Below are positions 1 through 5,447 of a stretch of DNA of 5,447 nt, piece by piece. The notes beneath the pieces are model-generated. The model had not been told where the DNA came from, made no database searches, and was given only the letters and a program-made list of their open reading frames with translations. The stretch lies in the IMG/VR virus record IMGVR_UViG_3300029517_000088. The stretch is one strand, 5' to 3'. The position numbers were made by a program, and so were the translations under genes. The DNA is from a virus (lineage: Duplodnaviria; Heunggongvirae; Uroviricota; Caudoviricetes). Within the stretch, counting starts at the first letter, position 1. The number at the start of each line of letters is the position of its first letter.

Positions 1-51
1 GCTCATGATGTCCCTCTGGGATGCGCTCCGGATGAATATGATGATCTCATA

Positions 52-141
52 TCAGGAACTTGTTCGCACCTTCCCTTTTTCACCGTCCGGATGCGCCCAG
101 GCATTCATCGCCATGCGGATGTGTTCATGCTTGATTTTCAT
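52..141 (-). CDS. Short ORF (29 codons, MKIKHEHIRMAMNAWAHPDGEKGKVRTSS) starting 17 nt inside the 3' end of ydaS; possible 5' remnant of a ydaT-like gene
   Basis: ATG at 141-139 on the minus strand overlaps the ydaS stop in a different frame. The frame closes at TGA (52-54). The other two minus-strand frames also carry stops in 1-141, so no long gene can run from here past the window edge without frameshifts. In K-12 the gene after ydaS is ydaT (about 140 aa). Confidence 0.25.
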   Translation of the reverse strand: MKIKHEHIRMAMNAWAHPDGEKGKVRTSS

Positions 142-406
142 GAATCAAGCTCCTAGAAAGTGGTTGTGTTAACATTTTGGTATCTTCCAGCTCGGGCCAA
201 ATATTCATCCAATCAAAAGGCCTTAGTTGCTGACGTGTAACTTCACCATTACTGGCTCGCTCAATAAGGACACATAACGATGCCCCTAACACTTGACCTT
301 TACTCAATGCCTTTCTTAGATAACCGATGCTGGTACCACACTCGCATGCAAACATACGCTGTTCATCTGACGAAAGAGAATTGAGAAATATTCTTAATTC
401 TTCCAT
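125..406 (-). CDS. ydaS: Cro-like helix-turn-helix regulator of the YdaS family (93 aa)
   Basis: ORF of 93 codons with a strong Shine-Dalgarno (AAGGAG, complement of 412-417) 5 nt upstream of the ATG at 406. Divergent from the repressor gene as in Rac. Sequence (CGTSIGYLRKALSKGQ...VTRQQLRP) has a Cro/YdaS-like HTH character. Symbol assigned by synteny and size. Confidence 0.75.
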   Translation of the reverse strand: MEELRIFLNSLSSDEQRMFACECGTSIGYLRKALSKGQVLGASLCVLIERASNGEVTRQQLRPFDWMNIWPELEDTKMLTQPLSRSLIHENQA

Positions 407-431
407 AGCTACTCCTTAGTAAACACAGCAA

Positions 432-459
432 AGAATACCCATAGGTAAACAAAAGTCAA
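432..459 (-). promoter_or_regulatory. Candidate sigma70 promoter for ydaS: -35 TTGACT (complement of 454-459), 16-bp spacer, -10 TATTCT (complement of 432-437)
   Basis: Read directly from the minus strand. The -35 is a 5/6 match and the -10 a 4/6 match to consensus. The predicted start is about 19 nt upstream of the ydaS ATG. Operator copy O1 overlaps the -10 and spacer. Confidence 0.45.
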
Positions 460-471
460 TACCCACAGGTT
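436..471. promoter_or_regulatory. Operator pair O1 (436-447 TACCCATAGGTA) and O2 (460-471 TACCCACAGGTT), OR-like cluster in the ydaS-racR divergent intergenic region
   Basis: Two copies of a 12-bp near-palindrome spaced 24 bp start to start. The same motif recurs at 502-513, 969-980 and 994-1005. Confidence 0.6.
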
Positions 472-472
472 G

Positions 473-500
473 TTTACCTTGCAGTAATCGCATCTATTAT
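473..500 (+). promoter_or_regulatory. Candidate racR promoter: -35 TTTACC (473-478), 16-bp spacer, -10 TATTAT (495-500); predicted start at or next to the racR ATG (leaderless)
   Basis: The -10 is a 5/6 match ending 6 nt before the ATG at 507. No Shine-Dalgarno is present upstream of the ATG, and no alternative in-frame start exists back to the stop at 417-422. Confidence 0.4.
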
Positions 501-501
501 T

Positions 502-513
502 TACCTATGGACA
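502..513. promoter_or_regulatory. Third, degenerate operator copy O3 (TACCTATGGACA) overlapping the racR start codon
   Basis: Matches the first 9 positions of the motif and spans the ATG at 507-509. Position is consistent with autoregulation. Confidence 0.35.
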
Positions 514-926
514 AATATGAATTTAGACGACAGCAACTCATCAAAATTCGTGATGAGAAATGCGATGGTAAAGCGGTTAACGTGGCCAGAAAGATCGGGC
601 GCGAGCCTTCTTATGTATCAAGAATGTTGTACCCAGAGGGGAAAAAGGGAAAAAAACGGATCGCTGATGATATGGTGGAGATTATCGAAGAGTCCTTTGG
701 GTTACCCCGGGGATGGATGGATGGTATCGTTTCATCATCAACGAACACAGCCTCCAGTTATGAAACAAGGGTTCTAACGCCACGACAACGTATTTTTTTA
801 GATCTCTTAGACGAACTGCCAGAAAGTGAAGCGGATAACTTATTAAAAACTCTTGAAGAGAAAAAACAGTATTACAATATGATCTACGAAGAAATCCGTA
901 AAAAGAAAGCACAAAACGCATCATAG
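507..926 (+). CDS. racR: Prophage repressor, RacR/DicA-like HTH protein (139 aa), no C-terminal peptidase domain
   Basis: 139-codon ORF divergent from ydaS. N-terminal HTH-like segment (AVNVARKIGREPSYVSRM). C-terminal segment (LTPRQRIFLDLLDELPESEADNLL) resembles the DicA C-terminus as I remember it. Position relative to ydaG, ydaF and sieB matches racR of Rac. My recollection of K-12 RacR is 158 aa, so the start or length may differ. Confidence 0.7.
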   Translation: MDKYEFRRQQLIKIRDEKCDGKAVNVARKIGREPSYVSRMLYPEGKKGKKRIADDMVEIIEESFGLPRGWMDGIVSSSTNTASSYETRVLTPRQRIFLDLLDELPESEADNLLKTLEEKKQYYNMIYEEIRKKKAQNAS

Positions 927-968
927 CTCACCAAACAACTAGTCACCAGTTAAGACACCGTAAAAAGT

Positions 969-1005
969 TACCCATGGGTATTTACTTTTTAAATACCTAT
1001 GGGTA
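969..1005. promoter_or_regulatory. Operator pair O4 (969-980 TACCCATGGGTA, perfect palindrome) and O5 (994-1005 TACCTATGGGTA), OL-like cluster immediately downstream of racR
   Basis: Two copies spaced 25 bp. Candidate weak promoter elements overlap them: -35 TTTACT (981-986), 17-bp spacer, -10 TATCCT (1004-1009); alternatively -35 TTACCC (968-973) with -10 TAAATA (990-995). Orientation would drive the + strand early genes. Confidence 0.5.
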
Positions 1006-1180
1006 TCCTTCTTTTCATACCAACCCACCCCGCCCCACAGAATGCAGGGCAATACTTCGAGTTACCAGGCAGTGGTCAGGGGTTAAGTAGCCAGCCCGAG
1101 GCGTAAGAACATGACGGCGGGATTCAAATTTTGCAGTGCAGCAGTTAGTTCCGCCACCCGGCGTTAAGGGGAGAGATAAG

Positions 1181-1325: not shown

Positions 1326-1481
1326 ATGCAAAAAATCGACCTCGGCAACAACGAATCCCTGGTGTGCGGCGTGTTCCCCAACCAGGATGGAACGTTCACT
1401 GCCATGACGTATACCAAAAGCAAAACATTTAAAACCGAAACTGGTGCGCGCCGATGGTTGGAGAAGCACACAGTAAGCTAA
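1326..1481 (+). CDS. ydaF: Small prophage protein (51 aa), function unknown
   Basis: ATG at 1326, 10 nt after the ydaG stop. The 51-codon length and position adjacent to sieB match ydaF of Rac. Its stop TAA (1479-1481) overlaps the sieB stop on the opposite strand. Confidence 0.6.
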   Translation: MQKIDLGNNESLVCGVFPNQDGTFTAMTYTKSKTFKTETGARRWLEKHTVS

Positions 1482-1966
1482 CGATTAAAACGTCTACTCC
1501 TGCTGTTCCAGAATAACTTCATAAAATGGGAGTATTTTTCGGTGACGAGATAATAAGAACAGTTTGCGCTATCACTCTGATGTTGAATGATGCCCTTCCG
1601 TTCTAATTTTTTCATAACCAGGTTACGGCAAGGAGAAGTGATAATAAGATTTCCTGTTTTAAGGAAATCTTTAAATACAGCGATTTCTTTCTCAGATAAA
1701 CGAAGCAATACTCGTTGCTCTGGTAGTAATGAATAATGCTTTTGAATATGTGCTCGCAATCTTGAGAAGGAAATGGCGACCACGAAAGAAAAGGCAAAAA
1801 CGATAATCTGAAAGAGCCAAGGTATTTCAGTATAAGCATTGAATGCGACAGTAAACTCTTTCGGTATCAGCCAGAGAGTGAGACCAAAAATGATAATCGT
1901 ATACATAAGTCTTTCGAGTGGCTCGTTAGCAAAAAGTTTCAACAATGGAGTAAATACATCCAACAT
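1478..1966 (-). CDS. sieB: Superinfection exclusion protein B (162 aa), predicted membrane protein
   Basis: From MLDVFTPLLKLF... the protein is 162 aa and matches SieB of Rac as I recall it. Two hydrophobic segments in the N-terminal half. The ORF track extends the frame to 2089 (203 aa), but that upstream start has no ribosome-binding site. Confidence 0.8.
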   Translation of the reverse strand: MLDVFTPLLKLFANEPLERLMYTIIIFGLTLWLIPKEFTVAFNAYTEIPWLFQIIVFAFSFVVAISFSRLRAHIQKHYSLLPEQRVLLRLSEKEIAVFKDFLKTGNLIITSPCRNLVMKKLERKGIIQHQSDSANCSYYLVTEKYSHFMKLFWNSRSRRFNR

Positions 1967-2407
1967 ATCAATAACTCTCAACTGTAAGGGTATTGAAATG
2001 TTAACACAAGCTCTCGCTGTAGGGGTATAGCCGAGACCACCGAAGCCCGGAGGTGGTGAAATAAAACCGGGCACAACACGAAGGCGCATTTCCGATATCC
2101 ATAAAGAGTCGGTCTTGTCTGTTAAATTTAAATGGTGGGAGTGCGCCTCCGGTTGTAAATAACGACATTGCTGTGTGTAGTCCTGGCGGCATCAGTTTTT
2201 TTCTTGAAGTTCGGCTGATGTCCGCCCTTTTTAAAGTGAATTTTGTGATGCGGTGAATGCGGCTAAGCGCACGTGGCACAGTTAAAAGTCATGTTAGTCC
2301 TTATTGGTTTGGGTGGGAAAGCCGACTGTAATTGTTAACTGGTTGCAGTCACCTGGAGGCACCGGACACCGCATCAACAAAGTTCATTTGTAAAAATGGA
2401 GATAATT

Positions 2408-2629
2408 ATGATTGCACATCACTTCGGAACTGATGAAATACCACGTCAGTGTGTGACTCCTGGCGATTATGTTCTTCATGAAGGCCGGACATATATTGCC
2501 TCGGCAAACAATATTAAAAAGCGAAAACTATATATTCGTAACCTGACCACAAAAACATTCATTACTGACCGCATGATTAAAGTCTTCCTCGGTCGTGATG
2601 GTTTACCTGTAAAGGCGGAGTCATGGTGA
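2408..2629 (+). CDS. kilR: Prophage Kil protein, cell-division (FtsZ) inhibitor (73 aa)
   Basis: Start at 2408 ([14 protein letters not shown]...) has GGAG 6 nt upstream; the 2396 start in the ORF track does not. The 73-aa length and sequence match KilR of Rac from memory. Confidence 0.8.
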
Positions 2630-2799
2630 TGACTAAGAAAATAAAATGTGCTTACCACCTTTGCAAAAAAGACGTTGAAGAAAGCAAAGCTATTGAAAGA
2701 ATGCTTCACTTCATGCACGGGATTTTATCAAAAGACGAACCGAGAAAATATTGCAGTGAAGCTTGTGCCGAAAAAGACCAGATGGCACATGAACTTTAA
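2629..2799 (+). CDS. ydaE: Small 4-Cys protein (56 aa), putative zinc ribbon
   Basis: ATG at 2629 overlaps the kilR stop (TGATG). The 56 codons contain CxxxxC and CxxxC pairs (KCAYHLCKK and YCSEACAEK). Size and position between kilR and racC match ydaE. Below the ORF track cut-off. Confidence 0.65.
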   Translation: MTKKIKCAYHLCKKDVEESKAIERMLHFMHGILSKDEPRKYCSEACAEKDQMAHEL

Positions 2800-2873
2800 T
2801 TAATTGACTATTCGAAACTGAATTTATGCCAGAAATGGCAGGTATTCGCTCAACCTTAATTAAGGAGAAAAAC

Positions 2874-3149
2874 ATGATTACCAATTATGAAGCCACTGTT
2901 GTAACTACCGATGACATTGTTCACGAGGTGAATCTGGAAGGAAAGCGCATTGGCTACGTAATTAAAACAGAAAATAAAGAAACCCCATTCACTGTGGTTG
3001 ATATCGATGGTCCATCAGGCAACGTAAAAACACTTGATGAAGGTGTCAAAAAAATGTGCCTGGTGCATATCGGAAAGAATCTGCCCGCAGAAAAAAAAGC
3101 CGAATTTCTGGCAACTCTAATTGCAATGAAATTAAAAGGTGAAATCTGA
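2874..3149 (+). CDS. racC: RacC protein (91 aa), function unknown
   Basis: Start at 2874 (MITNYEATVV...) has a perfect Shine-Dalgarno AAGGAG (2862-2867) 6 nt upstream; the longer 2826 start does not. The 91-aa length matches RacC. Confidence 0.8.
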   Translation: MITNYEATVVTTDDIVHEVNLEGKRIGYVIKTENKETPFTVVDIDGPSGNVKTLDEGVKKMCLVHIGKNLPAEKKAEFLATLIAMKLKGEI

Positions 3150-3154
3150 AAGAA

Positions 3155-3179
3155 ATAGCCTGCGTATGGCGCAGGCTAT
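3155..3179. other. Perfect 10-bp stem with 5-nt loop (ATAGCCTGCG-TATGG-CGCAGGCTAT) between racC and recE
   Basis: Read directly from the sequence. No U-tract follows on the + strand, so it is not a canonical intrinsic terminator. The minus-strand version is followed by a moderately T-rich run. Confidence 0.4.
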
Positions 3180-3250
3180 GAACAGTGTGTATCCGGCAAG
3201 ATCATTCACTGAACAAAACGAATTTTAATCTGAGTTGAGGTTAAAAAACA

Positions 3251-5278
3251 ATGAGCACAAAACCACTCTTCCTGTTACGGAAAGCGAAAAAATCATCCGG
3301 TGAACCTGACGTCGTCCTGTGGGCAAGCAACGATTTTGAATCGACCTGTGCCACTCTGGACTACCTGATCGTTAAGTCAGGTAAAAAACTGAGCAGCTAT
3401 TTTAAAGCTGTTGCCACGAATTTTCCTGTCGTTAATGACCTGCCCGCTGAAGGTGAGATCGATTTTACCTGGAGTGAACGCTATCAACTCAGCAAAGACT
3501 CCATGACATGGGAACTAAAACCGGGAGCAGCACCAGACAACGCTCACTATCAAGGCAATACCAACGTCAACGGCGAAGACATGACTGAGATTGAGGAGAA
3601 TATGCTACTCCCAATTTCTGGCCAGGAACTGCCCATTCGTTGGCTTGCTCAACACGGCAGCGAAAAACCGGTAACGCACGTTTCACGCGACGGACTCCAG
3701 GCATTACACATTGCTCGGGCTGAAGAACTACCGGCTGTTACTGCCCTGGCTGTTTCCCACAAAACCAGCCTGCTCGACCCGCTGGAAATTCGCGAACTCC
3801 ACAAACTGGTTCGTGACACTGACAAAGTTTTCCCTAATCCTGGTAATTCAAACCTGGGACTGATAACTGCTTTTTTCGAAGCATACCTGAACGCTGACTA
3901 CACCGATCGAGGACTGCTGACAAAAGAGTGGATGAAGGGTAATCGTGTTTCACACATCACTCGCACGGCTTCCGGTGCTAATGCTGGCGGCGGAAACCTC
4001 ACCGATCGCGGCGAAGGTTTCGTACACGATCTGACGTCACTGGCGCGCGACGTAGCCACTGGCGTACTGGCCCGTTCAATGGATCTGGACATCTATAACC
4101 TTCATCCGGCACACGCTAAACGCATTGAGGAAATTATCGCTGAAAATAAACCGCCCTTTTCTGTTTTCCGCGACAAATTCATCACCATGCCTGGCGGGCT
4201 GGATTATTCCCGCGCCATCGTGGTTGCGTCCGTAAAAGAAGCACCAATTGGGATCGAGGTCATCCCCGCGCACGTCACTGAATATCTGAACAAAGTACTG
4301 ACTGAAACCGATCATGCCAACCCTGATCCGGAAATCGTGGATATTGCCTGCGGTCGCTCCTCTGCCCCGATGCCGCAGCGAGTAACAGAAGAAGGAAAAC
4401 AGGATGATGAAGAAAAACCGCAACCATCTGGAACAACGGCAGTTGAACAGGGAGAGGCTGAAACAATGGAACCGGATGCAACTGAACATCATCAGGACAC
4501 GCAGCCGCTGGATGCTCAGTCACAGGTAAATTCTGTTGATGCGAAATATCAGGAACTGCGGGCAGAACTCCATGAAGCCAGGAAAAACATTCCATCAAAA
4601 AATCCTGTCGATGCCGATAAATTGCTTGCTGCATCACGTGGTGAATTTGTTGACGGAATTAGCGACCCGAACGATCCGAAATGGGTAAAGGGGATCCAGA
4701 CTCGCGATTGTGTGTACCAGAACCAGCCAGAAACGGAAAAAACCAGCCCGGATATGAATCAACCTGAGCCAGTAGTGCAACAGGAACCGGAAATAGCCTG
4801 CAATGCCTGCGGCCAGACTGGCGGGGATAACTGCCCTGACTGTGGTGCGGTGATCCGAACAGTAACACTACTGCAGCCTGCTCTTGAAGCACTGAAGGAG
4901 CAATACAAACTGACCGGGCATCATCGCAAAAGCGAAATCACCTTTTATCATCGGGAGTACGGCAGAACCGAAAAGCAAAAACTGCATTTTGTTTTCATGC
5001 CCAGGGTGTGTAACGGAAAACAAAAACCTTATTACTCGGTAAGCAGTTTGGGGGCAAGGTGGAATGCAGCAGTAAAACGTGCTGGTATTCGCCGCCGTAA
5101 TCCGTACCATACGCGGCATACTTTTGCCTGCTGGCTGTTGACGGCAGGAGCGAACCCGGCATTTATAGCCAGCCAAATGGGGCATGAAACTGCGCAGATG
5201 GTGTATGAAATTTACGGTATGTGGATTGATGACATGAACGACGAACAGATAGCCATGTTGAATGCGCGGTTATCGTAG
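3251..5278 (+). CDS. recE: Chimeric ORF (675 aa): RecE (exonuclease VIII) N-terminal region, about residues 1-534, fused in frame to the C-terminal about 141 residues of a Rac-type tyrosine integrase
   Basis: From [29 protein letters not shown]... to ...[21 protein letters not shown] the protein matches the RecE N-terminus as I remember it. After about nt 4852 it continues with an integrase C-terminus carrying the HxxR box ([10 protein letters not shown]) and the catalytic-tyrosine region (MVYEIYG). GAGG lies 10 nt upstream of the ATG. Confidence 0.8.
4853..5278 (+). pseudogene. intR: 3' remnant of the prophage integrase gene (C-terminal catalytic fragment only)
   Basis: Only the distal part of the catalytic domain is present; the upstream Arg/Lys catalytic residues and the N-terminal DNA-binding domains are missing. 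Position directly upstream of ttcA matches intR of Rac. The junction coordinate is approximate. Confidence 0.65.
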
Positions 5279-5329
5279 TTGCAAAGTTTGCCCCCAATTT
5301 GCCCCATTTAGTACCAGAGAACTGAAATA

Positions 5330-5447
5330 ATGCAAGAAAATCAACAAATTACAAAGAAAGAACAATACAACCTGAACAAATTACAAAAACGTCTGCGTCG
5401 TAACGTGGGCGAAGCCATTGCTGACTTCAATATGATTGAAGAAGGCG
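5330..5447 (+). CDS. ttcA: tRNA 2-thiocytidine biosynthesis protein TtcA, 5' end (39 codons, continues beyond the window)
   Basis: [39 protein letters not shown] matches the TtcA N-terminus. ttcA is the host gene flanking the integrase end of Rac. Confidence 0.85.

Follow-up and report, generated by a model that had tools for sequence, protein, structure and literature searches.

A single genuine deletion of 3359 bp in a Rac-type cryptic prophage at the host gene ttcA very probably created an in-frame fusion of recE and intR. The window analysed here is a whole JGI/IMG metagenome contig of 5447 nt, and the host of the prophage is an E. coli-like strain. The fusion is one open reading frame (ORF) of 675 codons on the + strand that spans window 3251..5278. 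It encodes RecE residues 1-534 followed by IntR residues 271-411. The anatomy of the fusion, the extent of the deletion, and the genes and domains present are all direct observations. The fusion protein has been seen once among about 15 billion proteins, where it forms a cluster of one.

Both parts of the ORF have known parents. Residues 1-534 match K-12 RecE at 533/534 positions by BLASTP, with D455A as the only change, and the two proteins diverge after the residues CGAV. The RecE proteins of strains L725 and CP53 are identical to this portion (534/534). Residues 535-675 are identical to K-12 IntR 271-411 in the same type of search (141/141). The recE 5' part (3251..4854, + strand) consists of codons 1-534 plus 2 nt, and it encodes the Exonuc_VIII N-terminal domain and a linker without the nuclease domain. 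The intR 3' part (4855..5278, + strand) begins with the third base of codon 271 and continues to the stop codon. At the DNA level, window 4855-5447, which runs from the intR 3' part across the intergenic region into the start of ttcA, is identical to K-12, CP53, and L725 over 593/593 nt. Such a match on both sides of the junction is a near-identity to known genes and evidently no chance pattern. The initial annotation had placed the change from RecE to integrase at about nt 4853, with CGAV followed by IRTVTLL, and had proposed that an alignment to K-12 would assign the first 534 residues to RecE and the last 141 to the IntR C-terminus. The protein and DNA comparisons agree with it exactly, the DNA matches overlapping at 4852-4854. 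Domain searches give the same division. The Pfam profile Exonuc_VIII (PF06630) matches fusion residues 2-178 with E = 4e-98, and Phage_integrase (PF00589) matches residues 535-655 partially, over profile positions 66-165 of 172. The NCBIfam RecE equivalog NF007259 scores 1068.5 bits over profile positions 1-563 of 877, which is under its curated equivalog cut-off of 1269 bits. RecE codon 455 (window 4613-4615) specifies Ala here and Asp in K-12. The Ala455 allele is also present in L725, CP53, 2017.13.01CC, and a RecE fragment of Shigella flexneri (P0006).

A base-by-base comparison places the deletion junction at window 4852..4854 (+ strand), where 3 bp (GAT) are common to the recE and intR parents. 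The match to recE DNA extends through window 4854, the match to intR begins at 4852, and the GAT sits inside an imperfect 6-of-8 match between the parents. The junction joins recE nucleotide 1604 to intR nucleotide 813. It is straddled by a hybrid codon, ATC (Ile535), to which recE contributes the 2 nt that follow its 534 codons and intR the third base of codon 271, and this hybrid codon maintains the reading frame. The missing segment measures 3359 bp against CP53 and against L725, both of which carry intact Rac-type elements. recE has lost 997 nt (codons 535-866, the 3' 38% of the gene) and intR has lost 812 nt (codons 1-270, the 5' 66%). recT, ralR, rcbA (ydaC), and xisR are entirely deleted, and these genes are annotated in that interval in CP53, K-12, and L725. 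It had been proposed that the rest of recE, recT, ralR, ydaC, the excisionase gene, and the 5' two-thirds of intR lay between the breakpoints, and that an internal deletion of a Rac-type prophage had removed the nuclease domain, recT, ralR, and the excision genes with the frame kept. The gap against the references and the annotation of the intact elements bear out each of these points, and the proposed sizing of the deletion and search for junction microhomology yielded the 3359 bp and the shared GAT. Because the frames agree across the junction, which has a chance of 1 in 3, a gene caller sees one ORF of 675 aa.

The product lacks the parts that define both of its parents. The C-terminal PD-(D/E)XK nuclease domain of K-12 RecE lies at residues 615-850 as PF12684 and at residues 605-866 in PDB 3H4R. 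It is missing from the fusion, in which the RecE portion stops at residue 534. K-12 IntR is comprised of an arm-binding domain (PF12167) at residues 5-69, a SAM-like core-binding domain at 82-139, and a catalytic domain at 205-391. The fusion contains neither the arm-binding (PF12167) nor the SAM-like core-binding domain in the Pfam analysis. Two residues of the active site are also missing, since both lie upstream of residue 271. These are Arg I of IntR, R231, which corresponds in the alignment to the residue mutated in R225K of Tn1549 Int (6EMZ), and the beta-hairpin Lys, K266, which is part of the motif PPKTNAG. An alignment to Tn1549 Int identifies IntR R358, H381, and Y391 as residues that are kept in the tail, where they are fusion residues 622, 645, and 655. 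Y391 is probably the Tyr nucleophile of IntR. The earlier description of this part as a non-catalytic integrase tail is thus right in one respect and imprecise in another. The tail is predicted to be non-functional, with an incomplete active site that lacks R231 and K266 and without the DNA-binding domains, but it does retain the catalytic residues R358, H381, and Y391. The integrase fragment starts partway through the catalytic fold and would probably not fold. With no nuclease domain and with an incomplete integrase catalytic domain that lacks its DNA-binding domains, the recE-intR ORF is best regarded as a fused pseudogene, which is presumably neither functional nor expressed. recE is normally silent in uninduced Rac, and sbcA mutations are needed for its expression. 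A scan of window 2300-5447 returned 0 sigma-70-like promoter matches where 4.4 were expected, which is weakly consistent with a silent recE.

The rest of the window is that of a Rac-type element. Window 75-4854 matches the Rac-type element of L725 at 99.92% identity, with 4 SNPs in 4780 bp and no gaps, and that of CP53 at 99.8%. The early-region synteny sieB-kilR-ydaE-racC-recE is present, and its identity to the Rac regions of K-12, CP53, and L725 is 99.7-99.9%. The superinfection exclusion gene sieB (1478..1966, - strand) was placed by transfer from positions 6404-6892 of the annotated locus L004. Annotation of the same locus was transferred, at 99.9% identity, to kilR (2408-2629), ydaE (2629-2799), and racC (2874-3149), which are intact, lie on the + strand, and stand upstream of recE. 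The immunity region is of another type than that of K-12. Window 75-1015 has no DNA match to the racR/ydaS region of K-12, and the match to K-12 starts at 1016. This immunity region is common to strains such as CP53 and L725. It contains an ORF for a helix-turn-helix regulator of 93 aa in the ydaS position (125..406, - strand), a non-K-12 immunity type that is annotated in CP53 and L725 as a transcriptional regulator (WP_000391949.1). A second ORF (507..926, + strand) encodes a protein of 139 aa in the position of the repressor gene racR. It is listed as a hypothetical protein (WP_000362155.1) and it has no K-12 DNA match, so at the DNA level it is not a racR homologue. By these comparisons, the element is a mosaic variant of Rac that has a repressor/toxin-regulator module unlike that of K-12.

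The integrase gene remnant adjoins the 5' end of the host gene ttcA, which is the att site, as in Rac-type prophages. The ttcA 5' end (5330..5447, + strand) was placed by transfer from L004 13615, and the contig ends within it. The boundary between prophage and host, which is the int-proximal att site, is at about 5337, where genomes without this integrase start to match. These genomes match window 5337-5447 at 97.3% identity, and a match of this degree from about 5337 fits an imperfect att core inside the ttcA 5' end. Rac attaches at the 5' end of ttcA and its integration changes the N-terminal residues of TtcA (PMC4632033). A distal copy of the att site was sought in the flanking DNA retrieved from relatives and was not found there. 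The Rac excisionase, XisR (YdaQ), works together with IntR at the att site, which is located in the ttcA 5' end (PMC4632033). In the element described here the functional excision module is missing, because xisR is wholly deleted and 66% of intR is deleted. Since xisR is gone and only a fragment of intR remains, the element should no longer excise by itself. It is reasonable, from the gene loss, to regard the element as grounded, that is, as unable to excise by its own machinery. The genes that remain are sieB, kilR, ydaE, racC, and the regulators of the immunity region.

A second lesion is found at the left end of the window. The first 74 bp (1..74, - strand) are the terminus of an IS5-family (ISKpn26-like) element and are 100% identical to positions 6001-6074 of locus L003. 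In L003 these positions overlap with the beginning of a gene annotated as an IS5-like ISKpn26 family transposase, and window 1..74 has thousands of matching sites in E. coli genomes and plasmids. The contig ends inside the IS, and the IS terminus (...TTCGCACCTTCC) meets Rac DNA at window 74/75. There it cuts a gene of the ydaT toxin family, of which a 5' remnant of about 22 codons is left (75..141, - strand). The corresponding coding sequence of L004 is 4642-5067 (- strand), with window 75 equal to L004 5001. The terminus is exact at the inverted-repeat end inside ydaT, and it points to a second, independent decay event of biological form. The 4 bp that adjoin the IS end are CTTT. The usual target of IS5 is YTAR, and since CTTT does not conform to it, the junction at ydaT may be the product of an IS-mediated adjacent deletion and not of a simple insertion. 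The IS5/ydaT junction was also looked for as a lineage marker in all collections searched and was not found in them.

We propose that a Rac-type prophage integrated at ttcA underwent one deletion of 3359 bp. The most likely route would be RecA-independent illegitimate recombination or replication slippage at the very short homology GAT. Of random recE x intR breakpoint pairs, 5.9% have 3 bp of junction homology, and the GAT therefore indicates a microhomology mechanism only weakly. The frames would have happened to agree, so that RecE 1-534 and IntR 271-411 came to form one ORF. The element would have lost the RecET recombination pair, the RalR toxin, RcbA, the excisionase, and a working integrase in this one event. 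Two other routes to the junction were considered and rejected. Aberrant integrase-mediated excision does not apply, as the junction falls within intR and some 480 bp away from the att boundary (about 5337). IS-mediated deletion does not apply to the recE-intR junction either, as neither an IS sequence nor a terminal repeat occurs there and the sole IS is at the far left of the window.

The leading alternative to a genuine deletion, though an unlikely one, is an artefact in which a chimeric read or a misjoin in the metagenome assembly united two parts of an intact Rac. What speaks for it is the rarity of the fusion, which is known from one metagenome contig only among those roughly 15 billion proteins. 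A junction probe of 201 bp was compared with 5,426 complete E. coli genomes, and no record among them matches it over 80% or more of its length. The junction is also missing from the phage and plasmid collections and from all other collections searched, and exact junction k-mers were found in none of the species-representative genomes, JGI metagenome contigs, or IMG/VR records. A junction-centred peptide had no match across both halves in a collection of 5.8 billion proteins, in a search that returned only proteins of up to 212 aa and missed both the parent of the query and the full-length RecE and IntR. The structure of the junction points the other way. A misjoin in the assembly graph requires a shared k-mer, and the parents share only 3 bp at the breakpoints. 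Both flanks belong to one lineage (L725) and one locus, and they are collinear, on the same strand, and 3.4 kb apart in natural order. This is the signature of a simple deletion and not that of a random chimera, and it favours a deletion over a misassembly. The contig passes the junction unbroken, which suggests that there was no competing intact path. The IS5-family lesion in ydaT also shows that the source genome is really eroding. A chimera of two strains, a separate candidate, was rejected because L725 alone matches both flanks almost perfectly.

A deletion in the prophage may also be genuine and yet be more than decay. The in-frame fusion could be expressed, useful, and retained, either for a role of the RecE N-terminal region or as a dominant-negative integrase half that acts against related integrases. 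We consider this very improbable. The frame is preserved over 675 codons, the PF06630 domain is intact and might keep its function, and the tail retains R358, H381, and Y391. In full-length RecE, the N-terminal domain has been reported to contribute to linear-linear recombination (PMC11611040). Against this, the prior chance of frame preservation is 1 in 3, so the kept frame is no evidence of selection. Only one copy of the allele is known, and nothing indicates that it has spread. Neither half differs from its parental gene, which leaves no time for selection to have acted. The fragment of the integrase starts in mid fold, recE is not ordinarily expressed in Rac, and the promoter scan of window 2300-5447 gave no match. 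If it were true, retention of the chimera would mean that a prophage fragment is on its way to domestication, which would go beyond mere decay.

The weakest alternative is a laboratory construct, made by restriction and ligation or by engineering a deletion in a lab strain that entered the sample as a contaminant, and it is scarcely credible. In its favour, the intR breakpoint lies in a GGATCC site (BamHI, with the Dam sequence GATC), the sequence at the junction (within window 4849-4860) reads TGATCC like a BclI/BamHI hybrid, and the right flank is identical to K-12. Against it, the recE breakpoint is TGATGG without a GATC or BclI site in all four references, which makes the resemblance look coincidental. 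No scar, cassette, or vector sequence is present, the immunity region (window 75-1015) differs from K-12, ydaT carries an IS5-family insertion, and the junction is in no complete genome of a lab strain. A single deletion in the prophage of an E. coli-like strain is thus the explanation that we prefer.

The importance of the fusion beyond annotation is slight. A gene caller would report a 675-aa 'exodeoxyribonuclease VIII' or 'integrase', and the protein is predicted to have neither activity. The element is also a precisely mapped example of how a cryptic prophage loses its mobility, in which a 3.4-kb deletion takes xis/int together with recET and an IS strikes the other side. The fusion is a natural allele of RecE with the N-terminal domain only, and it could be of marginal use for probing the function of that domain if the source strain can be obtained.

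Compared with intact Rac of K-12 and with its closest alleles, those of L725 and CP53, the element has the same order, which is ydaT, the ydaS-like regulator, and further on sieB-kilR-ydaE-racC-recE, with intR-ttcA at the int-proximal end. The left side is 99.8-99.9% identical to intact Rac and the right side 100%. It differs from intact Rac by the missing 3359 bp and by the ydaT-family gene, which is cut here by the IS5-family element, and its immunity region is of the L725 and CP53 type and not of the K-12 Rac type. The segment lost here also bears marks of decay in other strains. In the closely related strain 2017.13.01CC (L003 14970-16989) there are two copies of IS1, one that overlaps the 3' end of recT and one between rcbA and xisR, and this suggests that the recT-xisR interval is a frequent target of decay. 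A 'partial' IntR fragment of 148 aa (P0003, residues 264-411) represents 384 Shigella flexneri sequences. These are contig-end fragments that start 7 codons upstream of the position of the recE-intR junction, and they suggest a recurrent assembly break in the Shigella flexneri intR, probably at an IS.

The rearrangements of the sbcA type are known events that resemble the fusion in form. The sbcA8 deletion, for example, fuses upstream Rac sequence to recE and activates the RecE pathway, and such rearrangements are likewise in-frame deletions in Rac that give a chimeric RecE polypeptide. The sbcA deletions take away sequence in front of recE, or the 5' part of the gene, but spare the nuclease domain and recT, and the pathway is switched on. 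In the element described here the deletion leaves the sequence before recE untouched and takes out the nuclease domain and recT, and the pathway would be abolished. It is in this sense the mirror image of the sbcA type. Generic prophage decay offers a parallel in kind. There too, int/xis and recombination genes are lost, an IS provides a second hit, and superinfection exclusion and regulator genes are kept. Nothing in the element differs in kind from this pattern, and only the breakpoints are new, with no occurrence in the 5,426 complete genomes. The fusion is an ordinary, textbook kind of prophage decay, and the type of event is already known.
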